Shown piece by piece: positions 13,126 to 54,801 of a DNA stretch of 64,000 nucleotides. Numbering within the stretch: the stretch's first letter is position 1; every line of letters begins with the position of its first letter. The DNA lies in contig CAZHPN010000005.1 in the NCBI GenBank assembly GCA_964534375.1, positions 2,676 through 66,675 of the forward strand. The letters are read 5' to 3'. Origin of the DNA: an uncultured bacterium (GTDB taxonomy: Bacteria; Lernaellota; Lernaellaia; Lernaellales; Lernaellaceae). The translations under genes were made by a program, and so were the position numbers. The notes beneath the pieces were generated by a model that worked only from the letters and a program-made list of their open reading frames with translations, made no database searches and was not told the DNA's origin.

Positions 13126-13130
13126 ACAGA
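13126..13130. repeat. Left target-site duplication ACAGA of the Mu-like prophage
   Basis: Identical 5-mer directly outside both prophage termini (13126..13130 and 54797..54801). Confidence 0.7.
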
Positions 13131-13300
13131 TGTTAACGCGCACGGGATATGCAAAAAGCGGCACAACCCGCAACAACGCGGGATAGCCCGAAAAACAAAC
13201 GACTAATTGCAGCGACGGGAGCGCCGGGCGTTTCATGAGGTTTGCAAAAAACGCGGAGCAAACGGCCCGGGCGGAGCATGTGGTTTGAAAAAACGGCGGG
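13131..13300. repeat. Left end: terminal inverted repeat plus 4 subterminal direct repeats (putative transposase-binding sites)
   Basis: GGGATATGCAAAAAGCGG, GGGATAGCCCGAAAAACAAACG, GGTTTGCAAAAAACGCGG, GGTTTGAAAAAACGGCGG. Their reverse complements occur at the right end. Confidence 0.65.
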
Positions 13301-13531
13301 ACGCATGGCAGGCGCGCAAGCGAGCGCAGATAAAAGAAAAAGAGCGAGTGTTAGGATGCGGGCACCGGGAACGGTGGCCCAGGAAATCAACTCGGTTGGG
13401 CCAAAAGTCGGGCCACCGACTTAAGTAACCGATAAATAAAGCGAATGAGTAAAAACACGTTTTTTGCTCTGGCCCGAGTCAAAAAAATGGCGTTTTAGTT
13501 ATCCGAAAGCCCAGCGGGCGCAATGATCCGG

Positions 13532-13624
13532 TCACATGACGCGAAACAACCAGATCAAAACGATCACGGCCGCCACGATAACCACGACCGAGAAAACCGT
13601 AGGAACTGTCTTGTTGGGGTTCAT
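13532..13624 (-). CDS. 30-aa single-TM micropeptide (MNPNKTVPTVFSVVVIVAAVIVLIWLFRVM), start overlaps upstream stop (ATGA)
   Basis: Translationally coupled to 13621..14175; one hydrophobic helix. Too short for the supplied ORF track. Confidence 0.25.
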   Translation of the reverse strand: MNPNKTVPTVFSVVVIVAAVIVLIWLFRVM

Positions 13625-14175
13625 CGTCCGCCCTTTTCGCCGGTCGCCAGATAGAAGCGTTTTTCATCATGCGAGGGAAGAAGATAGATCGTGACGATCG
13701 CGCCGTCGGGAGAAAATCCGGCAAACTCAAAAAACCGGCGAAAATTTTTCCGCCAGATTTGCGCGCCGTTCTCGATCGCGACCAGCGAACAACTGGCCGG
13801 CCCCGAAACCTCTTCGGCGAGGATTATTCCGCTATTGGAAACGGCGCGTGCCCCGACCTTTTTCAGCGACGCGCGCCACAGAAGCTTCCTTGATCGCATT
13901 TCATAAAGCGCGACAGTTCCGCGGTTCCCCATGCTGCCGCCGATTATCCGAAGGACCGCGAATTGGCCGTTCGGCGATTTTGGAGCCCTTTCGATCGAGG
14001 CGGCTTCCAACATGAGCCCCAGTTCGAACGTGTCGTCTGCCTTCATGAAGTTTTCCTTCGTTCGTTTCTTCGAACGCGATTTTGCCGTCGTCGATCTCTG
14101 GCTGCCAAGCAACACAGCAATGAAACGCAGGATGGATTTCCAGCCACTGCGCTTCATTCCCTCCCCCACCACCAA
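13621..14175 (-). CDS. Hypothetical immunity-region protein, co-transcribed with the repressor
   Basis: 184-aa ORF overlapping the repressor 3' end by 22 nt (alternative internal starts possible). No recognisable domain. Confidence 0.4.
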   Translation of the reverse strand: MVVGEGMKRSGWKSILRFIAVLLGSQRSTTAKSRSKKRTKENFMKADDTFELGLMLEAASIERAPKSPNGQFAVLRIIGGSMGNRGTVALYEMRSRKLLWRASLKKVGARAVSNSGIILAEEVSGPASCSLVAIENGAQIWRKNFRRFFEFAGFSPDGAIVTIYLLPSHDEKRFYLATGEKGGR

Positions 14176-15143
14176 ACCACGCGGCCGATCAGCGCCGCAG
14201 CGATCTCGTCATCCTTGAAGGTTGCGATCTCGCCCGAACTCGCATTGTCGGGCCGCGCGATCCACACGTTTTTCGCGCGGACCAATCTTTTGATTCCCAC
14301 GCCGTCGTCATATCGGAAGGCGCAGATTTTGCCGACGAGCTGCTCGGGGTCGCGTTGGGCGAGGTCGATCGCGACGAGCCCGCCGTCCGGAATCGTGGGG
14401 AGCATGGATTCGCCGGCGACTCGAAGGCAAACGGTTTTTGTCGGATGAGGGCACCAGTCCGAATGCTTGATCGACGGGATAAAGTCCTCGATCTCATCTT
14501 CGACAATCGCCGCCGGCGGCCCGGCTGCCGCGGCTCCCGAGATTAGCGGCAAAAGATAGAAGACCGGGTTTTCGCGCGTCGAACGCCTGGTCAGTGGCGT
14601 CGTTATGAATGTGACGTTCGCCGTGATCGGAGCACCGCCGCGGGTCGGCACATCTTCGATGCCGTGAAGGAGCCAAAGCGGATCGACCATCAAAGCCTCA
14701 CCAAGTTTTGTAGCGACCGCAATCTTCGGAACGGCCCGTCCCTCTACAAAATCACGCATCGTTTTTTCGTCAATGCCGACCTGTTTGATGATCTCTGCGC
14801 CGGTTTTCGGCGATCGATAAAGCATCGCCTGCAAGCGTTCCGCGAATGTTTTTGCCTCCGCGGGCGTCGGCGGAATCGGCCCAGGTCCTTCCAGCGGAGC
14901 CATCAGTCCCTTGACCCGTTCGTCGAACATCGGCTCGACGCCAAAGTTCAAAAAAGCAGGGGTTACACCGTATTTTGTCGCCAAAGAAGTCAGAAACAGA
15001 CTGCTCACTCCCGATTTTCCAGCCAACACCATGCTGATGAATGACCGCGAAACTCCTAAAGAATCGGCAAATTTCTGTTGCGTCAGTCCAAGGCGGGTCA
15101 TGACCGCCCGAATTCGATCTGGAAATTCTTTGTTTTGGTGCAT
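14154..15143 (-). CDS. Phage repressor, HTH-XRE N-terminal domain plus LexA/CI-type S24 peptidase C-terminal domain
   Basis: N-term RIRAVMTRLGLTQQKFADSLGVSRSFISMVLAGK (HTH_XRE). C-term ...VCLRVAGESMLPTIPDGGLVAIDL...GIKRL is S24-like with Ser-Lys dyad context. It is transcribed leftward at the prophage left end, like Mu c. Confidence 0.8.
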   Translation of the reverse strand: MHQNKEFPDRIRAVMTRLGLTQQKFADSLGVSRSFISMVLAGKSGVSSLFLTSLATKYGVTPAFLNFGVEPMFDERVKGLMAPLEGPGPIPPTPAEAKTFAERLQAMLYRSPKTGAEIIKQVGIDEKTMRDFVEGRAVPKIAVATKLGEALMVDPLWLLHGIEDVPTRGGAPITANVTFITTPLTRRSTRENPVFYLLPLISGAAAAGPPAAIVEDEIEDFIPSIKHSDWCPHPTKTVCLRVAGESMLPTIPDGGLVAIDLAQRDPEQLVGKICAFRYDDGVGIKRLVRAKNVWIARPDNASSGEIATFKDDEIAAALIGRVVWWWGRE

Positions 15144-15150
15144 TTTTATG

Positions 15151-15183: not shown

Positions 15184-15322
15184 GACTACCATAGAAAACG
15201 ACCACGAGGGCTGAGCGTGGGAGACCCCAAACAAACCAACACCGAAGCGCGGAAAACCTTTGTCCGCACGCGTCCGCTCAGCCTCGCAGAAAAAAAACTA
15301 GCAGAGAACAAGAGCCTGAGCA

Positions 15323-15760
15323 ATGTCTAAACGACCGGAAAATCCAGCCCAAACGAGCCTCGGCTTCGTGCCGCGGTTCGATCCGTTGGCGCTGAAAAAG
15401 GCGCTGCGGGCGGACATAAGCGCCTGCCCTCTGAGCCGCGACCAGATCGCCGAGCGCATGCGCAGCTACACCGGCTGCGTCACCCCGACGCGCGCCACGA
15501 TCGACGCCTGGACCGCCGATTCGAAACCAACCCATCTGCCGAGCGTCGATGACATCGAGGCGTTCATCTATGTCACGGGGCAGCACCGGACTGCGGCGGC
15601 GATCGTCGCGCCCGCGCGGCTCTCGATCATCGGCCCCGCCGACGCCGAGCTGCTGGCGATCGCCAAGCTGCAAGAGGCTCGCGCGGCGCTCGATCAGGAA
15701 CTCGAACAAAGAATGACCGCGCGCGCGCGCGTTACAGAGAGAACAGGGAGCGGCCGATGA
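15323..15760 (+). CDS. Early regulatory protein candidate (Ner/Cro position)
   Basis: First rightward gene between repressor and transposase; 145 aa. No strong motif recognised, so the call is positional. Confidence 0.35.
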   Translation: MSKRPENPAQTSLGFVPRFDPLALKKALRADISACPLSRDQIAERMRSYTGCVTPTRATIDAWTADSKPTHLPSVDDIEAFIYVTGQHRTAAAIVAPARLSIIGPADAELLAIAKLQEARAALDQELEQRMTARARVTERTGSGR

Positions 15761-16075: not shown

Positions 16076-18154
16076 ATGACTGAGCCGCGCGTCGATTTCA
16101 CCGAGCCCGCCGTGCCCTTTGCGCCTCCGCGTGCGACCCCGACCGATGATTTTCTTTCGGCCGCCGAAGTTGTTGAGGCTTCTAACTGGTCGGAAACGAC
16201 TGTTAAACGGTACTTTAGAAACCACGCCGACGCGGTCGTGCCGACCGGCATCGGCAAGAAGCAATTGATCGCCCTTTCGGCGCTGCCGCCCGACGTGCAG
16301 CGGCTGCACCTGGCGCGCACCGGCCGGCTCGACGAAATCAACAGCGCCGAGGCGCAACGCGCGGCCGACGATTCGGCCTGGGTCGCGGCCAACCCGGACA
16401 AAGCGCCCGAGGCCCTGCGCCGCAAGGAAATCGTGCGCGGCTGGATCGCCCGGCGCGATTCGCTCGACCGCGACCGCACCGGCGCGCGCGACAACTTCGC
16501 CGCCGGGCACGGCATCAGCGGCGCGACGCTGCACCGCTGGTCGGCCGCCTACGAGGCCAACCATCGCCTCGCCGACCTGGCCGAGAACTACGGCACGAAT
16601 AAGGGCACCACGCGCGTCGACGCCGAGCGGTGGGGCGAAATTCTCAGCCTCTATCTCGACCGCAAATGCCCCAACCGCACCGTGGCGCAGGTCTACGATT
16701 ATTACGCCATGCGCTGCCGCTCGCTCGGGCAATCGCCGGTGACTTACAGCACGATTTTGCGCCAGTTATCCACTCCGGAAATTGAGATTTTGAAGTACGC
16801 GGCGCGCAAGGGCATTCAGGCGGCGATGGACCGCTTCGGCCCGTTCATCACGCGCACCCGCGCCGAGGCCTGGGCGAATCTGGCCTGGGTCGGCGATCAC
16901 TACAACATCGATATCCGCTGCGTTTCGCCCGACGGCCGTTTCCTCGCGACGATGTGGCTGACCGGCTGGCAAGATTACAAATCCACGATGCTCGTCGGCC
17001 ACGAAAAATGCGAGAGCCCGAGCGGCCAGAGCATTCAAACGGCGCTGCTGCGCGGCATCGAAAAGCACGGCCTGCCGGATATCGCCAACACCGACAACGG
17101 CAAGGATTATCTCTCCGAGGCCGTCGCGCTGCTTGTCGAGCAAACGCTGCACATCAAGATCGTCCGCTCGAAGGTCAAAAACGCCAAGGCCAAGACGATC
17201 GAGCGCGCGTTCCGCAACTGGTCGGAGCGTTTCTGCCCGGCCATCGTCGGCTGCCGCGGCCGGAACAAAAACGAGCGGCCCGAGAAGCTCGCCGAACTCG
17301 AAAAACTCACGAAAGACCGCATTAAAGCGGGCCTTCCGGTGGGTCTCGATCACGGCACGCTGCCGACCTGGTCGGAGCTTTCCGGCTTCGTCGATCACTT
17401 CGTTCATTGGTTCAACACGCGCACGGGCAGCGACGCCGAAGACCTCAACGGCGTGAGCCCGGCCGAGGTTTGGAAGACCGGCGACAACACCATCCGCACG
17501 GTCGATCGCGAAGCCCTCTGGATGCTCTGGCTCACCGTCGAATCGGTCACCGTGCGCAACTGCCAGGTGACCTTGTTCAAAGACTGCATTTTCCGCGACG
17601 CGGTCGCCCTGATGCCCTGGCACGGCCGCCCCGTCCAGGTCCGTTACAACCCGGATTATCTCGACAAGGTTTTCGTTTGCGACCCGGCGACGACGAAGTT
17701 GATCTGCGTCGCCCCTCGCGTGGCGAAAGTGCCCGGCTACGTGCCGGCGATGAGCAAGGCCGCCAACGAGGCGCTGGCTCACGAGAAAAAAGCCTTCAAA
17801 CAGGCCGTGGGCATGGAGCAACTGCACGCGGCCCGCATCCGCAATCTGACCTTCGCGCAATCGGCCGGCATTCCGGAGCGCGCCGATCTGCCGCCGGAGC
17901 CGACGATCGCCGACCACGCCGGCGGCTCCGTCTCGCAAATTCTGCCGATTTCGACGGCCGCGCGCGATGCGAAAACGGCGGAAAAAAGACTCGAAGAAAA
18001 GGCCGCTGAAACGGCCTTTAGAGACGCTTCAATCGACGATTATTACCGAGCCCCGGCCGCGGCGCCGCCCAAATCCGCCGCGATCGACGCCGACGAATTC
18101 TACCGCCCGCTGAAAACCACGAAAACCAAGGAGGTTGACCATGACCGAGACTAA
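16076..18154 (+). CDS. Mu-A-like DDE transposase
   Basis: 692 aa. RNase-H-like core with DDE residues in WVGDHYNIDI, IANTDNGKDY and AKTIERAF contexts; N-terminal HTH; RBS GGAGG. Confidence 0.85.
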   Translation: MTEPRVDFTEPAVPFAPPRATPTDDFLSAAEVVEASNWSETTVKRYFRNHADAVVPTGIGKKQLIALSALPPDVQRLHLARTGRLDEINSAEAQRAADDSAWVAANPDKAPEALRRKEIVRGWIARRDSLDRDRTGARDNFAAGHGISGATLHRWSAAYEANHRLADLAENYGTNKGTTRVDAERWGEILSLYLDRKCPNRTVAQVYDYYAMRCRSLGQSPVTYSTILRQLSTPEIEILKYAARKGIQAAMDRFGPFITRTRAEAWANLAWVGDHYNIDIRCVSPDGRFLATMWLTGWQDYKSTMLVGHEKCESPSGQSIQTALLRGIEKHGLPDIANTDNGKDYLSEAVALLVEQTLHIKIVRSKVKNAKAKTIERAFRNWSERFCPAIVGCRGRNKNERPEKLAELEKLTKDRIKAGLPVGLDHGTLPTWSELSGFVDHFVHWFNTRTGSDAEDLNGVSPAEVWKTGDNTIRTVDREALWMLWLTVESVTVRNCQVTLFKDCIFRDAVALMPWHGRPVQVRYNPDYLDKVFVCDPATTKLICVAPRVAKVPGYVPAMSKAANEALAHEKKAFKQAVGMEQLHAARIRNLTFAQSAGIPERADLPPEPTIADHAGGSVSQILPISTAARDAKTAEKRLEEKAAETAFRDASIDDYYRAPAAAPPKSAAIDADEFYRPLKTTKTKEVDHDRD

Positions 18155-19145
18155 TGCGGCCACGCCGTTGCGCCGCACGCGGACCTATACGGCCGCCGAA
18201 CTGGAAACGATCCGCGCCGTGCGCGAACGCGCCGCGGTCTGGATCAGAGCCGAGGCGGGGCGCTCGATGCGCTCGATCGCGGCCGGGACCAATTACAGCT
18301 ATCCGAGCATCTCGCTTTTTCTCGCGGAAAATTACGACGGCAACAATGTGGCCGTCGCGCAATCGATCGCCGCGTTTCTCGATCGCGAGGAAAACGTCAT
18401 CGAGGTCAAAATCGAGTTGGAGCCGGTCGAGTTTCCCTCATGGAAGACCGTCATCAAGGCCCTCGATATTGCGAAACGCGAGCGCAGCCTCGCCGACATT
18501 TACGGCGACCCGGGCGTCGGCAAGACGTTTCCCGTGGAATTCTTCGCGGGCGAGGACCCCGAATTCAACGTTTTGCTCCGCACGACGGCCGGCATGCACA
18601 GCCTGCAAGCGTTTCTCGCCATCCTCAACGCGCGGCTGGCCAAGACCCAAACCATCGTCTACAGCCGTCTGGAGAAAATGGCGGATGAAGTGATTAATTC
18701 GCTGATCCGCAAGCCGCGGTTCATCATCGTCAACGAGGGGCAGCGCCTCAGCTTCGACGTGTTCGATTTCGCCTGCGACGTGCAGGAAGCCGCCGGTTGC
18801 GGCATCGCTTTCGTCGGCCATCCGATCATGCACGACAAGATCGTCGCGGCCGAACGGCACGATTCGCAGACCTACGATCGCGTGGATCGGCGCATCTCGC
18901 ACACCGAAGTCAAACGCGGCAAAATCGAGCCCGACCTGATGGGCGAACTCGTCCGGCAAATCCTGCCGGAGATCACCGACGACGCGCTTTCGTTCCTCTG
19001 TGATGAAATTCTTTTTCCGCAAATCGGCCACGTCGTTGCGACTTGCCAACGCGCCAAGACGCTGGCCGCGTTGAGCAAAAAAGGCCGGAAACAAGATCGG
19101 GCGCTGATCGTCTCTGCCGCCGCCGACCGGAAGGGAGGCGCGTGA
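18135..19145 (+). CDS. MuB-like AAA+ ATPase (transposition target-DNA activator)
   Basis: Walker A GDPGVGKT; Walker B-like FIIVNEGQ. Overlaps the transposase stop, which is the typical A-B arrangement. Confidence 0.8.
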   Translation: MTMTETNAATPLRRTRTYTAAELETIRAVRERAAVWIRAEAGRSMRSIAAGTNYSYPSISLFLAENYDGNNVAVAQSIAAFLDREENVIEVKIELEPVEFPSWKTVIKALDIAKRERSLADIYGDPGVGKTFPVEFFAGEDPEFNVLLRTTAGMHSLQAFLAILNARLAKTQTIVYSRLEKMADEVINSLIRKPRFIIVNEGQRLSFDVFDFACDVQEAAGCGIAFVGHPIMHDKIVAAERHDSQTYDRVDRRISHTEVKRGKIEPDLMGELVRQILPEITDDALSFLCDEILFPQIGHVVATCQRAKTLAALSKKGRKQDRALIVSAAADRKGGA

Positions 19146-20088: not shown

Positions 20089-20260
20089 ACGCCTGCTGGC
20101 GATTATCCTGATCGCCTTCGCGCTGGCCGCCGGCTTCGTGGCTGCACTGATCTATTTGCTCGGCGAAATTATCACCATTCCGGCGCTGATCGGCGGAATC
20201 ATCGGCGTCGGAATTTTCGCGGCCGGCTGCGCCGGCGCGCGCAAACTTTGGAGGAACTGA
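20075..20260 (+). CDS. Small two-TM membrane protein
   Basis: 61 aa, LLAIILIAFALAAGFVAALIYLL ... IGGIIGVGIFAAGCAG. Confidence 0.35.
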   Translation: MKRCRRLLAIILIAFALAAGFVAALIYLLGEIITIPALIGGIIGVGIFAAGCAGARKLWRN

Positions 20261-20793
20261 TGGAAGCTCAGGAAATCGGCCTGCCGGCCGACGTGAAAAA
20301 ATGGACCAATGACGATCTCAACGAGGCGCTGCGCCGCATTTGCGAACGCCAACTCGCGCTGCGCCAGGCGGAAATCGCCTACGACGTGGCGCTGAAAAAG
20401 GCCAAGGAAAAGCTGGAGGCCTCGAAGAAAATCGAGAACGACGGAATCAAAGGCCTCAAGGCAAAAATCAAAAAAGCGTCCGAGCGGTTGCGCACCGCCT
20501 GGGAAAACAAATCGGTCAAGTTTTCCTGGGGCCGGGTCGGGTTCCGCGACACGCCGCGCCATTTGACGCTGATCGACGGCCGCAACGAAAACGACGCAAT
20601 CGTCATGCTCGAAGGTCTCGGCGTCGCCGGCGCGGTAAAGATCGAAAAACGCGTCGTCTTGGAAGTGCTCGAACGCCAAGCCGACAATGTCATCACCGCG
20701 GCCGGCTATCGCCGGGTCGATTCGACCGAGCGCTTCGAAATGAAAACGAAAATCGAAATCGAAGACGAAGAACCGAAGGTCAAGGAGGCGTAA
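20260..20793 (+). CDS. Mu Gam-like host-nuclease inhibitor (DNA-end binding) protein
   Basis: ATG 20260 with a GGAGG RBS (the track starts at TTG 20248). Coiled-coil N-term; the C-term segment FSWGRVGFRDTPRHLTLIDGRNENDAIVMLEGLGVAGAVKIEKRVVLEVL aligns with the Mu Gam C-terminal region as I recall it. Confidence 0.55.
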   Translation: MEAQEIGLPADVKKWTNDDLNEALRRICERQLALRQAEIAYDVALKKAKEKLEASKKIENDGIKGLKAKIKKASERLRTAWENKSVKFSWGRVGFRDTPRHLTLIDGRNENDAIVMLEGLGVAGAVKIEKRVVLEVLERQADNVITAAGYRRVDSTERFEMKTKIEIEDEEPKVKEA

Positions 20794-39319: not shown

Positions 39320-39320
39320 C

Positions 39321-45455: not shown

Positions 45456-45712
45456 AAAAGCGAGAAGCAAGAAGCCGGAAGCCGGAAGCCGGACTGCGCG
45501 CCTGGTTGCGCGGGCAGGCGGAAACGCGTTGCTTTATGGCCGGCCTGCGCGCGGTCGCGAAAAATCCGCGACGGCCGAATTACCGCTGGGCCCAGTTGTG
45601 GAAACGCCTGGCGATCGCGCTCGGCGCGAAATTCGCTGGGAGCGCCGACGCCCTCGTCGGCGACAGAAACGCCGGCGGGGGCGCCGGCGCTCCCGGCAAG
45701 GGGCGCCCGTGA
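45452..45712 (+). CDS. Small basic hypothetical protein
   Basis: 86-aa ORF from an internal ATG; Arg/Lys-rich, which makes it uncertain in high-GC DNA. Confidence 0.25.
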   Translation: MKKREARSRKPEAGLRAWLRGQAETRCFMAGLRAVAKNPRRPNYRWAQLWKRLAIALGAKFAGSADALVGDRNAGGGAGAPGKGRP

Positions 45713-46086
45713 GCCCGTTTCTCTGCCAGCCTGGCGTGGGCCTCGTCCTCGGACCCACAGGAAGGCCCGTCGCCGATCCAAGCGCGGCCACGGCCGTCTA
45801 CGTGCGCCTGGCGGCCATTTTTGACGGTTGGTGGTGGGACGCGACGAAACCGGCGGCGACCGAGGCCGAAATCGTCCGCGAAGTCTCGCCGGGCAGCGCG
45901 CCGCGCGTGGAAGCGCGCGCGACGATTCTTTTGCAGGCGCTGATCACCCAGGGCCTCATCAAAGACGTGACGGCGACCGCGACGCCAAATTACGCGAAGG
46001 CCGGATACGACCTGGTGATCAACTACACCGACCTCGTTTCGAACACGCCGGCGACGCTCAATGTCTTCGCCGCGATCGGGGATTGA
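45709..46086 (+). CDS. Baseplate protein (Mu gp46 / gpW-like)
   Basis: 125 aa from the GTG overlapping the upstream stop; positional call. Confidence 0.4.
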   Translation: MSPFLCQPGVGLVLGPTGRPVADPSAATAVYVRLAAIFDGWWWDATKPAATEAEIVREVSPGSAPRVEARATILLQALITQGLIKDVTATATPNYAKAGYDLVINYTDLVSNTPATLNVFAAIGD

Positions 46087-47443
46087 CGTGGACCCGACGA
46101 TCAAAACATACGCGCAAACGCAGGCCGAGTACCAGAACACCTTTGTCGCCACGATCCCCGAGGGCGACGCGGCCGACCCGAACGGGTTTTTTCACGGCCT
46201 GACGCATGCGCTCGCGCAGATCGACACGGGCATCGATGGCCGAATTCAACGCGCGATGATGAACGGCTTCCGCGGGACGGCCGATCCGGACGCGATGGCG
46301 AAAATTGCCGGGCCGGAAATCGGGCCGCCGCTGCCGGCGACGACGGCTTCGATGAACGTGCTCTTGCAGGGGACGCTCGGGGAACCGTTCGACGCGGGTG
46401 TCGAACTGCTCGAACCGAATTCCGGCGTCACAGTCAAAACGACAAGCGGCGGCGCATTTGTGCAGATGCAGGTCACGCAGTTCGTCGGCCTGCTGCCGAT
46501 CATGATGACGCTCAATGCCTGCGTCGTCTCTGCCGTTTCGGAAACGCCGGGCGCGGTCGGCATGCTGAAAAACGGCACGGCGCTGCAGGTGACCAGCAAT
46601 ACGCCGAACGTGCTTTCGAACGCCTCGGTATACGGCGGCGATGCGACCGGCGGCACGGACCAGGAAGACCCCGAGGCGTATCGGCAGCGCGACCTTGATT
46701 GGGTGCAGCACAAGCCGGCCGGCGGCAGAGACGGGGACCTGGCGATGCTGGCGAAATCGCTGCCCGGCATCGTCAAGGCCGTTGACTTCCCGGAACTCGA
46801 CGGTCTCGGCACCCATGCGGTCGCCGTTTGCGGCGCGAACAACGAGCCAGTTTCGGCCGATCAGCTCGCGGCCGTGAGTGCGGCCATCAATGGCCGCGAT
46901 TTTCGGATTGTGGGGATCAAAAATTATTACGCCCTCAATGCGACGCCGCGGTCGGTCGATTTTGCGCTCGCGGTCGAAACCGTCTGGTCGAATATCGGCA
47001 GCCCGAAACTGGTCGTCGCGGGCAGCACCCAAACGGTCGTCAACGTTTCCGACGCATCCGGGATTCGCTCCGGCATGAATATCGTCATCGCCGGCGCCGG
47101 CGTCGGCGGCGTTCCTTTCTGTGCGACCGTGTTGTCGGTCACCGGCAACGCGATCGCGCTCACGAACGCCAGCGCCTGCCCGATCGTGCCGGCGGCCGGC
47201 GCTGTTGTGACCGGGGGCTGCGCGGCGTTCAATACGCTTTATCAGCGCATTTTGCAGATGTTTTACGCGCTCGATCCGGGCGATGCGCTCTCGCCGTCAA
47301 TGTCGGTCGATCAATTCACGTTGGCGCAAATCACCGACGTAACAATTCTCGCGCCGGTCGCCACGGTGCGGCCGGTTGTCAGCGCGGATGTCGTGGAAAT
47401 TTGCACCCCGGGCGCAATCCTCATTGTGCCGATGGAGTCTTAA
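46061..47443 (+). CDS. Baseplate J-like protein (Mu gp47-like)
   Basis: 460 aa; canonical position. An alternative GTG start at 46088 would avoid the 26-nt overlap with the upstream gene. Confidence 0.55.
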   Translation: MSSPRSGIDVDPTIKTYAQTQAEYQNTFVATIPEGDAADPNGFFHGLTHALAQIDTGIDGRIQRAMMNGFRGTADPDAMAKIAGPEIGPPLPATTASMNVLLQGTLGEPFDAGVELLEPNSGVTVKTTSGGAFVQMQVTQFVGLLPIMMTLNACVVSAVSETPGAVGMLKNGTALQVTSNTPNVLSNASVYGGDATGGTDQEDPEAYRQRDLDWVQHKPAGGRDGDLAMLAKSLPGIVKAVDFPELDGLGTHAVAVCGANNEPVSADQLAAVSAAINGRDFRIVGIKNYYALNATPRSVDFALAVETVWSNIGSPKLVVAGSTQTVVNVSDASGIRSGMNIVIAGAGVGGVPFCATVLSVTGNAIALTNASACPIVPAAGAVVTGGCAAFNTLYQRILQMFYALDPGDALSPSMSVDQFTLAQITDVTILAPVATVRPVVSADVVEICTPGAILIVPMES

Positions 47444-47444
47444 T

Positions 47445-48713
47445 ATGGCCCCCACTACCGACGATGTCGTTCTCGATTTTTACCCGGTTGCGGGAATTCC
47501 GCTCGGTCGCCAGACGACGCTGACGGGCCTGCTGACCGCGGCGCAACAGCTTTATGGCCGCGGCGTCCTGCGCCTGCAGGCTGTGACCTTCGACCCGTCC
47601 ACAATTGCGGTTCCTGCGCCGGACGCGCTCTATCTCATTCACCCAGCGGCCTCGCAAAATCCCGGACATCTGGCGGCATTCACCAGTGCGGATTCGCAAT
47701 GGCATATTTCGACGTATCCGATCGGCGACGCCATTGTCACTCTCGCCGGTGACGACGGCGTGCACGAGCCGGGAATGCGTTATGCGCTGCTCGATGGCTT
47801 GTTCTGGCCGCTCGACCCGGGGATTCCCCGTCACGTCGTGGACATCGGCGCCATCCATCCGCCGGCCAGTCCAATTGTCGGCGGCCTTTATATCCTCGGT
47901 GATTCTGCCGCGCGCACGGGCGCCTGGGGCGGCACAGGTTCGATCAATCGCGCGCTCTGGAACGGAACGTCCTGGGTTTTTTACGGGGGCGACCTTGGCG
48001 ACTTAAACGGCGGATGTCTGCTTCGCGTGGACGCCGCCGACAACCCAACCGTCGCCGCCCCCGGATTGTATTGGTGGCGCGGAGGCGCTTTCGTTCCGCG
48101 GTTGATCAAATCTGATGCGCTGCCCGGCGATATCGATCTGACGATTCATAACATGATCCCGGACGTTTCAGGCGTCACCGCGCCGGGTCTCTGGGTCGTC
48201 GGGCCGGATGATGGGATTCCGACGCTCTATTTGGCCGTTCCCGGCGGCAATCCGATTCGCCTCGGTCAATTGTGCGGAATTCAAATCGCCGACGTGGCCG
48301 GGCTCTCGGACGCGCTGGCGGCGGCCGGCGGCCCGCAGCGCACCTATGCCCGCAACGTCAATCTGGTGCAGGCAAATAGCTTCGTCGATTTCGATGCGAC
48401 GATTACCGTGCCGGACGGCAAAAAGTGCATCTTCACGAATCTATATAGCTGGGTGCAGAGCGGCGGCACGGTCCAGTTTCTCAACGGTGACGCGCTTTAT
48501 ATCGTCAGCGCAGGTTTGACCGTTCTCGCCGGCCACACGCAGCCGACGCAATTGCAGCATATCTGGCAGACCATCATCCGCGCGCTGACCAACGTGGACG
48601 GCCCGATCGAGAGCGGCGTGACGCCGCGCATCGAGATCGATGGGGCGGACAGCGGGGCGGACGCCGCGGGCCTCGCGACCTTCATGCTCGAATATATTTT
48701 TGTGGATGCGTAA
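47445..48713 (+). CDS. Tail protein (baseplate wedge / fibre-proximal)
   Basis: 422 aa; start overlaps the upstream stop. Confidence 0.45.
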   Translation: MAPTTDDVVLDFYPVAGIPLGRQTTLTGLLTAAQQLYGRGVLRLQAVTFDPSTIAVPAPDALYLIHPAASQNPGHLAAFTSADSQWHISTYPIGDAIVTLAGDDGVHEPGMRYALLDGLFWPLDPGIPRHVVDIGAIHPPASPIVGGLYILGDSAARTGAWGGTGSINRALWNGTSWVFYGGDLGDLNGGCLLRVDAADNPTVAAPGLYWWRGGAFVPRLIKSDALPGDIDLTIHNMIPDVSGVTAPGLWVVGPDDGIPTLYLAVPGGNPIRLGQLCGIQIADVAGLSDALAAAGGPQRTYARNVNLVQANSFVDFDATITVPDGKKCIFTNLYSWVQSGGTVQFLNGDALYIVSAGLTVLAGHTQPTQLQHIWQTIIRALTNVDGPIESGVTPRIEIDGADSGADAAGLATFMLEYIFVDA

Positions 48714-49604
48714 ATGTCCCAATTCGGCGCACTCGGCTTTCCGTTCGACACCATCGGCTTCGCGCCGCCGGCCCCCGCTGCGCCGATCGGCGCGACGATG
48801 ACGCCGGATGTGACGAGCCTCCATGCCGCCGAGATACTCACGCTCACCGCGACCGCCGGTGTCTTTCCGATGAACCCGACGGCGACGATCGACGGAGTGG
48901 CGGCCGTCAAAATTGTGCGCGTCGATGACACGACGCTGGCGGTGACCACGGCGCAATTCATGCGCACGAACGAACGCGCCGACGTGATGATTTATGACGC
49001 CGGCGCGCCGATCGCGCAGGCGTCGATCGCCGTCCGGGACGAATTTTTGAAAATTCTGCTGGCCGCGACCGAGCGCGCCTGGTCGCCCGAGCCATCGTCG
49101 GTCGGCTACCGCGTACTCGCGGCGATCGCCGCGGGCCGCGAGCGCCGCAATGAATTGAATCGACGCTGCCACGACCAGATTTGCCCGGAGTCGGCCGACG
49201 CGATCGAGGGGCTGCCGGACTTCGAGCGGGACCTGGCGCTCGCCGCGCGCGAGGACCTCTCGGCGGCGCAACGCCGCGCGCGGGTGCGCGCCAAGCTCAA
49301 CGAATCGCCATCGCTGGCCTGGGGCGCGGTGCTCGATGCACTCGCGCCGTTTCTCGTCGGCTGCGCCGGCGCGGATTTGCCCGTCATTCACGAGCTCGAA
49401 AATTATGACGTTTATGGCGATTTGATCTGGTTTTTCTGGGTCGAAATCACCGATGCAATTATCAATGGCCCTGCGTGGGATTGGTCCTCGGCCGAGCAGG
49501 CGATTCGCGACGTGAAGCCCGGCTTCGCCGGTTTTTGCCTCGGCCGCCGCGGCTTTTTCGCCGGCATCAGCGGCGCCGGCCGCGACGCGGTCGCATACGT
49601 GTAA
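48714..49604 (+). CDS. Tail protein with DUF2313/YmfQ-like C-terminal region
   Basis: LPDFERDLALAAREDLSAAQRRARVRAKL resembles the DUF2313 pattern. Confidence 0.4.
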   Translation: MSQFGALGFPFDTIGFAPPAPAAPIGATMTPDVTSLHAAEILTLTATAGVFPMNPTATIDGVAAVKIVRVDDTTLAVTTAQFMRTNERADVMIYDAGAPIAQASIAVRDEFLKILLAATERAWSPEPSSVGYRVLAAIAAGRERRNELNRRCHDQICPESADAIEGLPDFERDLALAAREDLSAAQRRARVRAKLNESPSLAWGAVLDALAPFLVGCAGADLPVIHELENYDVYGDLIWFFWVEITDAIINGPAWDWSSAEQAIRDVKPGFAGFCLGRRGFFAGISGAGRDAVAYV

Positions 49605-49615
49605 GAGAGGAATAA

Positions 49616-50809
49616 ATGCAAAACGGCAAGCAATTCGAAACCCCCGACGGCGGCCCGATTTTTCCGTCCTATTTCAACTCGCTTTTTCGTCTATTCAAAA
49701 ACGGACTCCGGCCGGGCCTCTTCTGCGATGCGGCCTCATTGCTCGGCGCGCTGACCGCGACCGCGGCCACGCGCCTGACAATGACGGCGCCGAACGCGGC
49801 CGACGGCGAGTTCATTTATTCGGCCGGGATGTTCCTGACTGACGTCAACCAGGCCTTCGTCGATTTCGGCGTCGGCGACGCCGCCGGTCCCTATACCCTC
49901 TATATCGACGCCTCCGAAAACACGGCCGCGCCGTTTCCGCGCTTCGAAATCTTCCTGCGCAAGTTCCAGATCGGCGGGGGGGACGGCTCGGCGGCCAACA
50001 ATTGCCTCGCGATCGGCGTGGCGAATTGGGACGGAACGACGGCGACTATCGATCCGGTTCTCACCGCCGCGCTCCGCAAGGCCGCGCTCGGAATTCTCGA
50101 TCTGACGCGCCTTTATGCCAATCCGCAGGCCCTGCGCGATCTCGACAAAATGACCTGGGGCGACGGCGTCCGGCTCGGCGGCGAGCCCGCCGAAGACCCG
50201 ACGGCGAGTGTGAATCCCGAAGGCGTCAATGTGTTCCTCGGGCGCCTTTGCTCGCTCTTTTTCGGGCCGTCCGGCAACATCAAAATGGGGGCCGGCGGCC
50301 AGATTATCCTCAGCGACGGCAACGGCGGTTCGGTCCAAGTGGGTGATGCGCTGCTGCGCATCATCGCCGGCGCGTTGGCGCTCGACGGCTCCCCGCTGCA
50401 ACTCGACCAGACCTCGCCGATCGTCTTCGGAGCCTCCGACGCTCCGCAGCACCAAGGCGACAAGAATGTGCTGACCGTCGAGCACATCGCCAAGGTCGAT
50501 GCATATGCCCCATACGCCGCTTGGGGCGCGCCCGGCGGCGTGGCCGATATTAGCGGGATCGGAGTGGACTCGATCTTCAATTCGGCCGAAGGCGTTTATG
50601 TGGTCAATTTTCTGCATGCCTTTGCCGTTCCGCAAACCTATCGTTTGCACGTAGATTCCGATTATTGGGTGGCGCCGTGGTACTTCGTCGCCAGTCCGAA
50701 AGCCGCGGGCTCGGTGACTTTGGCGTTCTATTTTTGGGATAATACGACCAATGCTTACGTGCTGCGGAATACCTCGTTTTCAATTTACGCCAGCGGGGTG
50801 CTGGCCTAA
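49616..50809 (+). CDS. Putative tail fibre protein
   Basis: 397-aa Gly/Ala-rich protein; last structural gene. Confidence 0.45.
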   Translation: MQNGKQFETPDGGPIFPSYFNSLFRLFKNGLRPGLFCDAASLLGALTATAATRLTMTAPNAADGEFIYSAGMFLTDVNQAFVDFGVGDAAGPYTLYIDASENTAAPFPRFEIFLRKFQIGGGDGSAANNCLAIGVANWDGTTATIDPVLTAALRKAALGILDLTRLYANPQALRDLDKMTWGDGVRLGGEPAEDPTASVNPEGVNVFLGRLCSLFFGPSGNIKMGAGGQIILSDGNGGSVQVGDALLRIIAGALALDGSPLQLDQTSPIVFGASDAPQHQGDKNVLTVEHIAKVDAYAPYAAWGAPGGVADISGIGVDSIFNSAEGVYVVNFLHAFAVPQTYRLHVDSDYWVAPWYFVASPKAAGSVTLAFYFWDNTTNAYVLRNTSFSIYASGVLA

Positions 50810-50844: not shown

Positions 50845-51333
50845 CTAGCCCGGAGTGCAGTCCGACGGCGGCCCGGCAATGCCTTCTTGCACCAACGCGA
50901 CAAAACAATTGCTCATAATCTGGCAACTGGAACCGGCGTAATAAATGCACTGTCCGAGCTGCTGCGTCACGCCATACGGAACTTGGTTGTTTTCGCAAGC
51001 CGAAACGAACTGGGCCTCGGTGCAGCCGACGATCCCGAGGCCGCATTTCGTGCAGAAAGCGTCGTAGAGGGATTGGCAGGTCGGTCCGCTGTCGTCGTCA
51101 TCGTCGTCGTTGTCGTCATTGTCATCATCATCGTCGTCGTCATCGGCCGCATCGTTATCGTCGTCGGCCGCATCGTCGTCGATCGTAGCGTCATCATCGG
51201 CGGTCGGCGAGCCGTCGTCGTCGGCGGCGACGTAAATGTTATTCGTGGTCTTGGCGCCGGGAGCGCACGTCGCCAGGAGCAAGAGGCAGCCGGCCAGGAG
51301 CAAGGACGCGATCGCGACAGTCAGGGCCTTCAT
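50845..51333 (-). CDS. Prophage-encoded secreted Cys-rich lipoprotein with poly-Asp linker (moron)
   Basis: Lipobox LLAGC, then a D-rich stretch ADDDGSPTADDDATIDDDAADDDNDAADDDDDDDDNDDNDDDDDD, then a C-terminal domain with 12 Cys. Convergent with the fibre gene. Confidence 0.5.
   Translation of the reverse strand: MKALTVAIASLLLAGCLLLLATCAPGAKTTNNIYVAADDDGSPTADDDATIDDDAADDDNDAADDDDDDDDNDDNDDDDDDSGPTCQSLYDAFCTKCGLGIVGCTEAQFVSACENNQVPYGVTQQLGQCIYYAGSSCQIMSNCFVALVQEGIAGPPSDCTPG
51091..51225 (-). repeat. GAC-rich trinucleotide repeat tract (poly-Asp)
   Basis: gtcgtcgtcatcgtcgtc... on the + strand. Confidence 0.85.
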
Positions 51334-51449: not shown

Positions 51450-51917
51450 ATGAGCGACCTCGGCCGAAAACTTCTCAATACCGCCAAATCCTACCTGGGC
51501 GTGCGCCGCGAACCGGGCACGTGCCCGCCCGCGATCGCCGAATTTCTCGCGGCCGTTGGCATGCCGCCGAACGAAACGCTGGCCTGGTGCAAAGCGTTTT
51601 TCACTTTCGTTTGCCAGCAGTGCGGCGTGGCCATCGACACGCACCCGAACGCCCGCGCGCTGCTCTCCGACCCGGACTGGCAACGCGTCGAGCCAGCCGA
51701 CGTGCAGGCCGGCGACGCGGCCGTTTTCTGGCGCGGCGACCCGAAGGGCTGGGAAGGCCACATTGCATTTGTCGCCGAGCCGCCTGGGAGCGCTGGCGTT
51801 CCCGCCGGCTTTTTGCGCGTCCTCGGCGGCAACCAGGCGTCATCCGTGTGCTATGAGAATTTCCCGGTCAACCGCGTGCTGGCCTATCTGCGGCCGAAGG
51901 AGCAAGCCGATGCCTAA
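51450..51917 (+). CDS. CHAP/NlpC-P60-like cysteine peptidase (TIGR02594-like; endolysin or PG hydrolase candidate)
   Basis: Catalytic Cys context LAWCKAFFTFVC and His context WEGHIAFV; 155 aa. Confidence 0.6.
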   Translation: MSDLGRKLLNTAKSYLGVRREPGTCPPAIAEFLAAVGMPPNETLAWCKAFFTFVCQQCGVAIDTHPNARALLSDPDWQRVEPADVQAGDAAVFWRGDPKGWEGHIAFVAEPPGSAGVPAGFLRVLGGNQASSVCYENFPVNRVLAYLRPKEQADA

Positions 51918-52299: not shown

Positions 52300-53040
52300 A
52301 TGGTCAAACGCGATGATCTTTTCGAAGTCGCCGGCGTGTGCGGCGGTAAAGCACGGGCCTGTCTGGGTTTGGTGCGAAGAGCCCCAAAGCCGCGGCTCGG
52401 TCTCGTCACGGCCGGCGCGGCCGCATCGCCGCAGGTAAATATCGTGGCCCACATTGGCGCGGAATTGGGTCTGCCGGTGCGGGCGCACGTGCCGAAAACG
52501 AAGGTACTGTCGCCGGAAATTGCGGCGGCGAAGGCCCGCGGTGCGGAGATCATTCAGCACGCGCCTGGCTACAACACCGTGATCGTCGCGCGCTGCCGCG
52601 CCGACGCTCGCGCTCGGGGCTGGATCGAGATCCCATTCGGCATGGAGTGCCCCGAGGCCGTCATACAGACGTGGCAGCAGGCGGCGCTGCTGCCCTGGGG
52701 CCAATTCAAACGGATCGTCATGCCCTGCGGCTCGGGAATGAGCCTCGCCGGCGTCCTCTGGGCCCTGAAAGAATCGGGATGCAGAACGCCGGTGATTGCG
52801 GTGCGTGTCGGCGCGGACCCGAGCAAGCGGCTCGATGAGTACGCGCCGGATGAATGGCGGGCGATGGTTCAGATCGTCGATTCGGGAACGGGCTACAAAA
52901 TGGCCGCAGAAACGCAATGGAACGGAATCACCCTCGATCCGCACTATGAAGCAAAGGCGGCGAGGTTCGTGCAGCCGGACGATCTTTTTTGGATCGTCGG
53001 GCTGCGGCAGACGGTTAAGCGCTCTTTAACAACTGAATAA
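52300..53040 (+). CDS. Compact PLP-dependent fold-type-II enzyme, D-cysteine desulfhydrase / ACC deaminase-like
   Basis: VKRDDLFEVAGVCGGKARACLGLV...LGLVTAGAAASPQVNIVAHIGAELGL aligns with DcyD [22 protein letters not shown] ... [24 protein letters not shown], including the PLP lysine. 246 aa versus ~330 typical. The in-frame upstream peptide ...PTPIEHVAGV continues the homology but has no start codon. Confidence 0.6.
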   Translation: MVKRDDLFEVAGVCGGKARACLGLVRRAPKPRLGLVTAGAAASPQVNIVAHIGAELGLPVRAHVPKTKVLSPEIAAAKARGAEIIQHAPGYNTVIVARCRADARARGWIEIPFGMECPEAVIQTWQQAALLPWGQFKRIVMPCGSGMSLAGVLWALKESGCRTPVIAVRVGADPSKRLDEYAPDEWRAMVQIVDSGTGYKMAAETQWNGITLDPHYEAKAARFVQPDDLFWIVGLRQTVKRSLTTE

Positions 53041-53063
53041 TGACGGTTTTTTAGGTGTAAAAA

Positions 53064-53082
53064 CGCCCCGAAAAAAAGGGGC
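53064..53082. terminator. Hairpin CGCCCC-gaaaaaaa-GGGGC with flanking T/A runs (bidirectional terminator-like)
   Basis: 25 nt after the PLP-enzyme stop. Confidence 0.3.
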
Positions 53083-53196
53083 AGAGTTGGCATGTTAGCG
53101 CATGCCGAACCGACGACGCTTGCACGTCGCCCCGACGAAGCCGGCTGCCCCTAGCGAGAACACAGGCATTCTAGCCGGCGAAAAAGGGATGACAAG

Positions 53197-54099
53197 ATGC
53201 AGTCTTCATTGCGTGATTCGTTCATCGTGCCGCCGTTCAGCGTTCTGGATGCGCGGCAGGGTTATTGGCAGGAGCGGAAACGGCGCTGGCTCGAGCTGAT
53301 CGGCGAAATGCGGCCGACGTGCCCGCAGCCGCTGTTTCACGACGTTTCGATCGGCGGGAAAACCAAGAAGATCAAGGACGGCAAAAACCTCTCGATTTTC
53401 GACCCGGTTCTTGCCGAAGTGCTTTTGCATTGGTTCTGCCCCGTCGCCGGCGACGTGTTCGATCCGTTCGGCGGCGAGGCGGTCAAGGGCATCGTGGCGG
53501 CGACGTGCGGCCGGCAATATTTCGGCGTCGAAATTCGGCCGGCGCAGGTCTGGGAAAATCGGCGCATCGCCAAGCGTCTCGGCGCGACGCGTTGCACCTG
53601 GTTGATCGGAGACGCCGGCAAGCTCGCCGCGCTCGTGGCGGCGCAGCGGACCTTCGATTTTGTGTTTTCTTCACCGCCATATTGGAACCTCGAACGCTAC
53701 CGCGGGCCGCGCGGCGATCTCTCCGAGGCGCGCGATTACGGGTCATTCCTGGCCGCCTTTGAGCGCATCGTTTGCCTCTCGGCCGAGCGGCTGCGGCCCG
53801 GCCGGTTCATGGCGATCAAGGTCGGGAATTTCCGCGATCGCCGCGGGGCGCTGATCGATTTTGTGGGCGACACGGCGCGTTGCGGCGCGGCGGCCGGCCT
53901 GGCGTTCTACAACCAATACGTTCTCGCCGGCGTGAATGGCGCCGCGCCGCTGCGAGGACGCGGCATGATGCGCACGCGCAAATGCGCCCCGACCCATCAG
54001 GCGGTGCTGGTCTTTTTCAAGGGCAACCCGCGCGAGTTCGATCGGCGCGCGTTCCCGGAGATCAAGAGATACGATGATCCGCTTCCGGCTGCGGAATAA
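53197..54099 (+). CDS. DNA methyltransferase-like protein (motif I FDPFGGE, motif IV SSPPYW; N6-A / N4-C class)
   Basis: 300 aa. An AdoMet-binding FxGxG-type motif is followed ~85 aa later by an S-P-P-Y catalytic motif. Confidence 0.6.
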   Translation: MQSSLRDSFIVPPFSVLDARQGYWQERKRRWLELIGEMRPTCPQPLFHDVSIGGKTKKIKDGKNLSIFDPVLAEVLLHWFCPVAGDVFDPFGGEAVKGIVAATCGRQYFGVEIRPAQVWENRRIAKRLGATRCTWLIGDAGKLAALVAAQRTFDFVFSSPPYWNLERYRGPRGDLSEARDYGSFLAAFERIVCLSAERLRPGRFMAIKVGNFRDRRGALIDFVGDTARCGAAAGLAFYNQYVLAGVNGAAPLRGRGMMRTRKCAPTHQAVLVFFKGNPREFDRRAFPEIKRYDDPLPAAE

Positions 54100-54625
54100 G
54101 GCGCTGCGGGCGCGGGTCATCGCCGACCACCTGGCGAAACTCGGCCAGACGCGCTGCCTCGTATATTCGTGCGGCAATGCGGCGCGCGAATTGCGCCGCG
54201 TCGGCCTCGACGTTGTCGAGGTTGGCGCGGCCGGCGCCCTGATCGCCCAGCGGGAGCTTGATTGCGAGGAAATGCTCCTCACGCACCCCGGGCTTTTCAA
54301 CGCGACCAGCGGCCATTTGTCGCCGGCGTTGATGGCGCGCCTGGCGGACGTGTTCCGCCAGTGGCTGCCACCCAAAATTCTAGGTTCGAGCGAGCCGGTT
54401 TGGTGCCCTTGCGGCAGCGGCGAGACGCTGGTCGCCCTGGCGGCGAGCCTCGGTTTCCGCCGTCTGCGGGCGATCATTTCGGCCGATATTCCGGCCATCA
54501 ACTTCGGAATGACGCCGCTCGCCGGAGTCATCGCCGCGAACGTGCCGGTCTTCGACTGGCGCGATATTTCAGCGGACATCGATCGCCGGCGCGGCTGGCT
54601 GGTCGATACAGGATTCGCAGAGTGA
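54074..54625 (+). CDS. Hypothetical protein with PLP fold-type-II-like motifs
   Basis: LVYSCGNAARELRRVGLDVVEV (compare SsGNHg.A.aAa..G) and VWCPCGSGETLVALAASLGF (compare a glycine-rich loop); 183 aa; overlaps the MTase 3' end. Confidence 0.35.
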   Translation: MIRFRLRNKALRARVIADHLAKLGQTRCLVYSCGNAARELRRVGLDVVEVGAAGALIAQRELDCEEMLLTHPGLFNATSGHLSPALMARLADVFRQWLPPKILGSSEPVWCPCGSGETLVALAASLGFRRLRAIISADIPAINFGMTPLAGVIAANVPVFDWRDISADIDRRRGWLVDTGFAE

Positions 54626-54740
54626 AAAACGGTTGCTAAACGGCCATAAAACGCTGTTTAGAAAGCCGTGAAGAGTGAGTCAAAATTCTGACAGCGGCCG
54701 ATTCGTAGGAGAACCGGTCGCTATTTGTGCGCCTGGAGTG

Positions 54741-54796
54741 CGTTTTCTTTTTGCAAACCAAATGCACATTTTTTTCAAACCGCACGCGCGTCAACA
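54741..54796. repeat. Right end: terminal inverted repeat plus two subterminal repeats (putative transposase-binding sites)
   Basis: cgttttctttttgcaaacc and catttttttcaaaccgcacgcgcgtcaaca are reverse complements of the GGTTTGCAAAAA... sites at the left end. Confidence 0.65.
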
Positions 54797-54801
54797 ACAG
54801 A
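54797..54801. repeat. Right target-site duplication ACAGA
   Basis: Identical to 13126..13130. Confidence 0.7.

Follow-up and report, generated by a model that had tools for sequence, protein, structure and literature searches.

Probable Mu-like transposable myovirus prophage with base-exact ends and a 5-bp target duplication in an uncultured bacterium

Two copies of the pentamer ACAGA lie more than 41 kb apart in a 64,000-nucleotide stretch of DNA from an uncultured bacterium (contig CAZHPN010000005.1 of assembly GCA_964534375.1; the whole stretch is hereafter called the window). The locus raises the question of whether the DNA between the pentamers is a transposable phage with ends that can be placed to the base, and of how complete such an element is. 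A first-pass annotation of the window had proposed an intact Mu-like prophage of 41,666 bp with inverted termini, each starting with TG, and a 5-bp target duplication of the Mu type. We conclude, with a probability of about 0.88, that positions 13131-54796 are a structurally complete Mu-like transposable myovirus prophage, inserted by DDE transposition into the spacer between convergent host genes. The element is Mu-like by architecture and mechanism but not a close relative of Mu, and constitutes a deeply divergent new member of the known transposable phages.

The marks of a transposable prophage are termini of TG and CA, a scar of 5 or 6 bp and a transposase with its activator (PMC8705779). 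Reading both junctions directly, we found ACAGA at 13126-13130 and again at 54797-54801, the left and right copies of the target-site duplication. At the left junction, host sequence ...ccctg is followed by ACAGA and then, from 13131, by the phage sequence TGTTAACGCGCACGGG...; at the right junction, the phage sequence ...CCGCACGCGCGTCAACA runs up to 54796 and is followed by ACAGA and by gatccgg. The span 13126..54801 takes in both pentamers, whereas the element proper, 13131-54796 on the forward strand, is 41,666 bp long and reads 5'-TG...CA-3', its tips TGTTAACGCGC.../...GCGCGTCAACA lying within short terminal inverted repeats. The left repeat, TGTTAACGCGCA (13131-13142, forward strand), a putative cleavage end, matches the reverse complement of 54785-54796, which on the reverse strand reads TGTTGACGCGCG; the right end as a whole gives TGTTGACGCGCGTGCGG when reverse-complemented. 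The base 5' of the pentamer is host g at the left and the phage's own a at the right, and the base 3' of it is phage T at the left and host g at the right, so ACAGA cannot be extended in either direction and the duplication is exactly 5 bp, with 6 bp excluded. The first-pass claims regarding the ends (an identical pentamer directly outside each terminus, inverted termini with TG and the right end as quoted, a 5-bp duplication of the Mu type and an element of 41,666 bp) all stood up to this reading.

To assess how readily such a configuration arises by chance, we combined all left boundaries that fall between the final host gene and the phage's first gene (12436-14154) with all right boundaries that fall between the phage's final gene and the host gene after it (54626-54999), giving 642,906 pairs. 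Identical 5-bp flanks were present in 884 pairs and a terminal identity of at least 10/12 in 74, and a single pair, 13131/54796, combined the two, with ~0.1 expected even without the demand for TG/CA. When the ends are fixed independently, the 5-bp flank match has a P value of 0.0014. The same scan gave no alternative with a duplication of 4, 6, 7, 8 or 9 bp that had TG/CA ends and comparable terminal identity. The tips themselves agree at 10-11 of their first 12 bases, at 20 of 27 and at 21 of 30 in ungapped comparison, and an identity of 20/27 was attained by just 7 of 200,000 random 27-mer pairs drawn from the window. Two long "inverted repeats" within the element, 34255-34354 and 51079-51178, were set aside as low-complexity runs of Asp/Asn codons and not structural repeats. 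They come from the Asp/Asn-rich C-terminus of a head-region protein (33896-34360, forward strand) and from a lipoprotein gene with a poly-Asp tract (50845-51333, reverse strand).

The ends also carry repeated sites to which the transposase may bind. The 12-mer GGTTTG[C/A]AAAAA (GGTTTGMAAAAA) has four copies in the window against 0.03 expected, a number reached in none of 100 shuffles, and the copies (13239+, 13282+, 54748- and 54770-) all face inward and lie at most 165 bp from the tips. On the left these are the candidate sites L2 (GGTTTGCAAAAA, 13239-13250, forward strand) and L3 (GGTTTGAAAAAA, 13282-13293, forward strand), and on the right the contiguous R2 (54748-54759) and R1 (54770-54781), together spanning 54748-54781 on the reverse strand. 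A degenerate candidate site, L1 (GGATATGCAAAAA, 13145-13157, forward strand), was recognized by ungapped comparison in the same tip register as R1, and the core TG[C/A]AAAAA occupies bases 20-27 from the tip at both ends. With the four exact 12-mers and the degenerate L1, candidate sites are repeated at both ends, in the order tip, L1, spacer and L2/L3 some 110-150 bp in on the left, and tip, R1 and R2 on the right. Phage Mu has the same asymmetric layout, with L1, a spacer and L2/L3 at one end and contiguous R sites at the other. The first-pass annotation had named a failure of the terminal repeats to align in a proper aligner as evidence against its proposal; MAFFT aligned the 12-nt tips and, after a gap of ~99 nt, paired R1/R2 with L2/L3, and the terminal repeats thus do align.

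Gene calls, based on independent assemblies of the same locus and a filter on GC content at third codon positions (GC3), gave ~55 tightly packed and uninterrupted open reading frames (ORFs), nearly all rightward, and the matches to Pfam and PHROG follow the Mu gene order from an S24 repressor through the transposition genes, head and tail to Gp48. A transposase and an adjacent ATPase activator lie near the left end, downstream of the divergent repressor. The DDE transposase (A; 692 aa, 16076-18154, forward strand) matched Pfam Mu-transpos_C at 2.3e-8 (34.3 bits, the cut-off being 21.7), and its catalytic triad, D274, D340 and E376, does not vary across an alignment of 19 sequences, the transposase and 18 homologues. 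A profile of the transposase family matched the MuA transpososome chain 4FCY in one stretch covering nearly the whole chain (7e-58), the TnsB of type V-K CRISPR-associated transposons (CAST; 6e-58) and the MuA end-binding domain I-gamma, 2EZH (3.5e-12). Searched as a single sequence against the PDB (phmmer), the transposase had its best match in type V-K CAST TnsB (8.5e-8) and MuA was not recovered; the MuA-specific models for the core and the N-terminal DNA-binding domain, PF02914 (DDE_2) and PF09039, were not matched by the transposase itself, whereas distant homologues do match them. The protein has the arrangement of the MuA/TnsB superfamily, a DDE core of the RNase-H fold with a Mu-transpos_C beta-barrel after it, and, given the invariant triad and the profile matches to both MuA and TnsB, is by sequence a divergent member of that superfamily. 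Just two of 5.8 billion proteins exceed 30% identity to it, P0002 (50%) and P0003 (46%).

Downstream of the transposase gene lie the genes for a MuB-like AAA+ transposition ATPase predicted to act in target capture and activation (334 aa, 18141-19145, forward strand; Pfam AAA_22 and phrog_296 "DNA transposition protein", 9e-24) and for a Gam-like DNA-end-protection protein (20260-20793, forward strand; Pfam Phage_Mu_Gam, 3.5e-12). The repressor (329 aa, 14154-15143, reverse strand) combines an N-terminal helix-turn-helix (HTH) domain with a C-terminal autopeptidase of the S24 (LexA/CI) type (Pfam Peptidase_S24, 1.6e-14, with HTH_31 and HTH_3), which suggests SOS-inducible derepression via RecA-stimulated self-cleavage, unlike in Mu. 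The first gene of the early rightward region, in the position of Ner or CII, encodes a regulator of 145 aa (15323-15760, forward strand; phrog_2345 transcriptional regulator, 4e-18, and the CII-like phrog_101, 6e-6).

The two closest relatives of the transposase come from contigs that share the layout of repressor, regulator, A, B and Gam (L014, from ERZ27254118, with P0002, and L015, from SRR32473236, with P0003), and of these phages the left parts alone are available. Contig L015 begins at base 1 with the phage tip TGTTACCGGTCAAAAAGCG... (1-30: TGTTACCGG...), starting at TGTTA. A break at the homologous TGTTA is what heterogeneous flanks are expected to produce, and gives independent support for the left-end assignment in this clade. 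The prophage on L014 adjoins sulfatase genes, which indicates a different insertion site; its exact tip is ambiguous. Both contigs have an A-rich site, ...ATAGGATG[T/A]AAAAA, ~130-155 bp from the left end, a distance that matches the position of L3.

At the insertion site, the left flank holds a gene for a B12-binding radical S-adenosylmethionine (SAM) enzyme, which ends at 12435, and the right flank a gene for a Wzx-type flippase (55000-56454, reverse strand), with GH92, Sel1 and further host genes beyond. Rejoining the flanks with a single ACAGA reconstructs an empty site of ...GAGTTCCCTG-ACAGA-GATCCGGGATC..., within an intergenic spacer of ~229 bp between convergent genes. We rejected the idea that the insertion split a host gene, as the ORFs crossing the reconstructed junction had low GC3 and nonsense translations rich in Arg. 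The GC content of the element is 0.631, that of both flanks 0.641. Two host proteins give tentative pointers to the affiliation of the host: Wzx has its closest relative (49%) in the metagenome-assembled genome (MAG) "Deltaproteobacteria bacterium fen_1099", while the GH92 protein is closest to "Myxococcales" MAGs (59%) and 44-46% identical to its counterparts in Ca. Alcyoniella and Ca. Lernaella. A JGI metagenome contig of 143 kb (3300041809 Ga0455670_0000859) agrees with the window apart from a few single-nucleotide polymorphisms and one indel of 18 bp. The indel lies in the host flank at 12752-12773, inside a small ORF (12518-13099), where the window has an insertion when compared with the JGI and ENA contigs; the prophage sequence itself is identical.

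Several observations weigh against a complete Mu-like transposable prophage. Its 41,666 bp are ~7% above the 36-39 kb usual for the group (PMC8705779), a length that is typical and not strictly defining. The lone transposase had no match to the Pfam Mu core model, and its match to rve fell below threshold. The small terminase, holin/endolysin and Mor/C-type late activators were placed by position or weak matches. At least five assemblies, each from a different sample (JGI 3300041809 and 3300014161, ENA ERZ27250145 and ERZ27249851, and SRR6946416), have the prophage at this one site with 100% sequence identity, no contig of this phage breaks at its termini and there is no sign of ongoing transposition. 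A second insertion site was not found: the transposase, right-end protein and protease, when looked up by exact match, each led to the same site, and the terminal 31-33-mers of both ends were absent from IMG/VR, as was any close relative of the transposase. Neither did our metagenome and genome searches find an empty-site allele. A metagenome scan for the left flank, 0-20 nt and the right flank gave 0 matches. The Wzx relatives in GTDB genomes, at best 49% identical, are not comparable for this purpose; metagenomic Wzx relatives (80% identical) are not syntenic, since wzx is directly followed there by another membrane-protein gene, and neither is the contig of a GH92 relative with 84% identity. 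When the flanking Wzx and radical-SAM proteins were looked up by exact match, the only returns were the occupied site and contigs that stop short, and the small flanking ORF was not on record. As no empty site was seen, the duplication is read from one occupied site. The term "intact" of the first-pass annotation accordingly holds as a structural statement: the reading frames are uninterrupted and the ends complete, in an element seen at one occupied site in all assemblies.

How strongly do these points favor other explanations? The uniform site and sequence, the lack of alternative junctions or of contigs ending at a phage terminus, and the insecure identification of endolysin and holin would all fit a grounded prophage, one with the ends described here that has become fixed in its lineage and no longer transposes or makes particles. 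We consider this a serious but rather unlikely alternative, given that the ~55 ORFs are packed and uninterrupted, that no damage is seen at either end, in the DDE triad or in any of the five candidate binding sites, and that a single clonal host population explains the identity across samples equally well; the closeness of GC and GC3 to those of the host points to adaptation to it and not to decay.

The ends themselves could be misplaced, with the ACAGA match a coincidence and the true termini elsewhere, for instance a few bases in or out. A chance of 0.0014 per fixed pair and hundreds of boundary pairs with some 5-bp match leave room for such an accident when one occupied site is seen, but the sole pair that joins a 5-bp match to a terminal inverted repeat also has TG/CA and the core at bases 20-27, a related contig starts at the homologous TGTTA and duplications of other lengths offer nothing comparable, making coincidence very improbable. 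Less probable still is a transposable phage of the B3/Tn552 type with a 6-bp duplication. B3-type phages have a 6-bp duplication and the same overall architecture (PMC8705779), and the single transposase sequence matches TnsB and not MuA in the PDB. However, the profile of the family scores as well against MuA as against TnsB, and the flanking 6-mers differ: GACAGA stands against ACAGAG, AACAGA is partly phage sequence, and the scar is exactly 5 bp, which rules out the B3-type scar. A model with an integrase targeting a tRNA is likewise unsupported, the searches of the window having found no tRNA gene, Rfam family or tyrosine/serine integrase.

For a Mu-like transposable prophage, the Mu paradigm (PMC8705779) suggests how the element would have arrived and how it may propagate. 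The transposase would bind L1-L3 and R1-R2, the sites of the GGTTTG[C/A]AAAAA type, synapse the ends and nick 3' of the terminal CA; the 3' ends would then be joined with a 5-bp stagger to a target captured by the MuB-like AAA+ ATPase, and repair of the stagger gaps would leave the two copies of ACAGA. Lysogeny is probably maintained by the leftward HTH-S24 repressor. Once induced, the phage would multiply through rounds of transposition, be packaged by the headful into a Mu-type head and acquire a contractile tail, and the gpN-like protein would protect and circularize the incoming DNA. The anatomy of the element, its gene families, the DDE triad and the duplication come directly from the sequence, whereas we infer that the sites are bound and cleaved in this way, that the phage can be induced and may still be active, and what role the cargo has.

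The first-pass annotation had called the gene content Mu-like and complete. The former was confirmed, and in Mu order; of the latter, a nearly full Mu set remains, the assignments of the small terminase, holin/endolysin and Mor/C-type activators being insecure. Downstream of the repressor, gene calls placed two short ORFs of 63 and 178 aa that run leftward (13479-14157, reverse strand) and have no family above threshold in Pfam, PHROG or PADLOC. The genes described next are on the forward strand. Position and hydrophobicity make three small ORFs (25519-26485), two of them with an N-terminal transmembrane helix, a candidate holin/spanin cassette; family searches gave no match for them. The large terminase subunit (540 aa, 27732-29354; phrog_38, 1.7e-53) has its nearest phage relatives in RcapMu and RcWaterboi, at 26% identity. 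It is followed by a portal protein (Mu gpH) fused to a Mu F head-morphogenesis domain (29355-31856; Pfam Portal_Mu, 5.8e-44, residues 61-417, and Phage_Mu_F, 1.8e-16, residues 645-750), an ORF with the same length of 833 aa in independent assemblies, and by a Mu gpI-like head protease/scaffold (31853-33028; Pfam Mu-like_Pro, 8.8e-7) and a Mu gpT-like major head subunit (34381-35391; Pfam Mu-like_gpT, 4.2e-7).

Head-tail joining is represented at 35646-37227 by a Mu Gp36-like protein (PF07030), the virion morphogenesis protein Phage_tail_S (PF05069, 4.7e-14) and a tail terminator (PF23840, 1.5e-6). The contractile tail (37406-39767) consists of a sheath of 637 aa (37406-39319; phrog_165, 5.7e-46) and a tube of 148 aa assigned by position, and size and position together with phrog_1533 (1.6e-5) identify the tape measure protein (40355-42535). 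A Mu gpN-like DNA circularization protein (42535-43806) matched Pfam DNA_circ_N at 4.8e-5, above the cut-off. The baseplate and fiber module (43888-50809) comprises a hub (phrog_177), Baseplate_J (46061-47443; 8.5e-19), a Gp48-like protein (48714-49604; Phage_Mu_Gp48 below threshold) and two candidate fiber proteins. The set of tailed-phage morphogenesis genes is thereby fully represented, the small terminase and the lysis genes being placed by position. On the opposite strand lies a moron whose product is predicted to be a lipoprotein and contains an extended poly-Asp tract (50845-51333; signal peptide and LLAGC in the translation), for which searches of Pfam, PHROG and PADLOC found no family, and back on the forward strand follows a candidate peptidoglycan hydrolase of 155 aa resembling CHAP and tail-lysozyme proteins (51450-51917; phrog_1259, 1.6e-12, Pfam CHAP below threshold).

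The element shares with Mu the TG...CA ends, the 5-bp duplication and the asymmetric end sites; a repressor gene pointing leftward, with a rightward early operon of transposase A, ATPase B and Gam after it; the portal/F/I/T head genes, Gp36, contractile tail, gpN protein and gp47/gp48-type baseplate; and a putative DNA-modification function in the last genes at the right end. It differs from Mu in having no detectable nucleotide similarity and a protein identity of 20-28% at best, in its HTH-S24 autopeptidase repressor in place of Mu Rep, in the fusion of portal and F and in its length (41.7 kb, that of Mu being 36.7 kb), and neither an invertible G segment nor Gin was found here. With the whole element as query, megablast had no match among 50,697 phage records. 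In tblastn searches with the transposase, terminase and portal-F protein, the best phages were BalMu-1, phiRTG5, Mushu, RcapMu, RcWaterboi and D3112/MP22-like phages, all transposable, with identities of 22-28% over 57-86% of each protein. No genus-level relative (Muvirus, Casadabanvirus or others) was found, the amino acid identity to sequenced phages being at most 28%.

The overall order of modules is common to Bacillus BalMu-1, Fusobacterium phiRTG5, Rhodobacter RcapMu and RcWaterboi, the Pseudomonas D3112/MP22-like phages and Faecalibacterium Mushu. In the D3112/MP22-like phages, however, portal and F are two adjacent genes, and the D3112-like phages and RcapMu are siphoviruses, whereas a sheath is encoded here. 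The resemblance extends to the transposases of Tn7-like elements, including CAST V-K (TnsB), and of the Tn552 type, which share the DDE/RNase-H core, the Mu-transpos_C-type barrel and a paired AAA+ ATPase for target selection (TnsC/MuB), and Tn7 also generates a 5-bp duplication. Unlike in Tn7-like and CAST elements, the transposase here sits inside a full tailed-phage genome, with no TnsA, TnsD, TniQ or CRISPR components.

At its right end the element carries a cargo block (52300-54625, forward strand) that ends 171 bp from the tip. The first-pass annotation had placed this block inside the phage, and with the right end at 54796 it does lie there. The first gene (52300-53040) encodes a small enzyme of 246 aa of the pyridoxal phosphate (PLP)-dependent fold type II, similar to 1-aminocyclopropane-1-carboxylate (ACC) deaminase and D-Cys desulfhydrase (Pfam PALP, 4.9e-12; phrog_3650, 7.8e-28), with an ACC-deaminase-like lysine motif GGKAR. 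The second (53197-54099) encodes a DNA methyltransferase-like protein of the N6A/N4C type of 300 aa (phrog_12517, 8e-79; phrog_498, 2e-53; PADLOC MTase_II), with DPFGGE as motif I and SPPY as motif IV. The third (54074-54625) overlaps the methyltransferase gene by 26 nt and encodes a protein of 183 aa for which Pfam, PHROG and PADLOC searches were all empty. Its motifs NKAxRA, CGNAA and CGSGET resemble signatures of PLP-dependent folds, and on these motifs alone it is possibly a minimal PLP fold. Its AlphaFold2 model was poor (mean predicted local distance difference test score, pLDDT, 54), and we disregarded the Foldseek matches of that model (TM score ~0.36). Among 5.8 billion proteins it has a sole homologue, in a MAG of Ca. 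Alcyoniella australis (GCA_030765605.1) of the phylum Ca. Lernaellota. The methyltransferase and 183-aa genes form a two-gene cassette (53197-54625), which recurs in that MAG with the same 26-nt overlap (positions 6048-7372 of L025). The two copies are 53% (methyltransferase) and 60% (183-aa protein) identical at the amino acid level, and the Ca. Alcyoniella cassette sits in a different prophage with dissimilar tail genes.

Elsewhere the PLP and methyltransferase proteins are found joined. In the Pseudanabaena phage Pam4, gp70 (L023, 1985-4474) contains both as one polypeptide of 829 aa, in the order ParB-N, methyltransferase block with motif I, PLP domain (36% identity, 2e-34) and methyltransferase block with motif IV, and the same three-piece pattern is present in the Erythrobacter phages R6L (gp1) and ZS04. 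A HMMER search of 1.84 billion representatives assigned 336 clusters (50% identity) to the PLP family at E <= 1e-30, which makes it large and widespread. The majority of the best matches are proteins of 700-1,000 aa in which the PLP domain spans roughly residues 330-600 (P0179-P0328), and of nine long matches tested, eight had N6_N4_Mtase beside the PLP domain, directly N-terminal to it in seven, and three had ParB_N. By its domain matches, then, the PLP domain is in most family members inserted in a ParB-N6/N4 DNA methyltransferase between motifs I and IV, whereas here the two are separate adjacent genes. We found no description of the PLP family or of this PLP-methyltransferase architecture in the searchable literature, which does not prove either undescribed. 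One family member, P0184 (1049 aa), has a PLP domain 60% identical to that of the prophage fused to a family-A DNA polymerase, with no methyltransferase; as read from its sequence, the fusion is another link of the PLP domain to DNA metabolism.

What these genes do is suggested by their place. Mu has Mom and Com at this position, where the present element has the PLP enzyme, the methyltransferase-like protein and the 183-aa protein instead; no Mom homologue was found at the right end, its genes matching PALP, N6_N4_Mtase or nothing, and the resemblance of the cargo to the Mom/Com module is positional and functional only. By analogy with that module, the three genes most likely modify DNA to escape restriction. 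More tentatively, the PLP enzyme, the methyltransferase-like protein and their 183-aa partner may together be a DNA base-modification module of a new kind in the mom position, although we hold this to be doubtful at present. An enzyme of this sort could, through joint SAM and PLP chemistry, add to DNA a group derived from an amino acid or remodel one there, which would be a hypermodification and not a plain methylation.

The prophage itself is an element of textbook type, and its value is mainly practical: it provides a transposable phage that is apparently complete and defined to the base, from an uncultured host probably related to Lernaellota, and to our knowledge the phages of such candidate-phylum lineages are not well described. 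It shows two structural variations on Mu, the LexA/CI-type repressor and the fused portal-F protein, and its divergent transposase with defined ends could seed a genetic tool in the style of mini-Mu or widen comparisons of transpososomes. The cargo is potentially more important than the prophage that carries it, and its placement inside the element led to the observation of PLP domains within ParB-methyltransferases in phages elsewhere. If confirmed and not already described, it would be a candidate for a new DNA-modification chemistry at the classic anti-restriction position.

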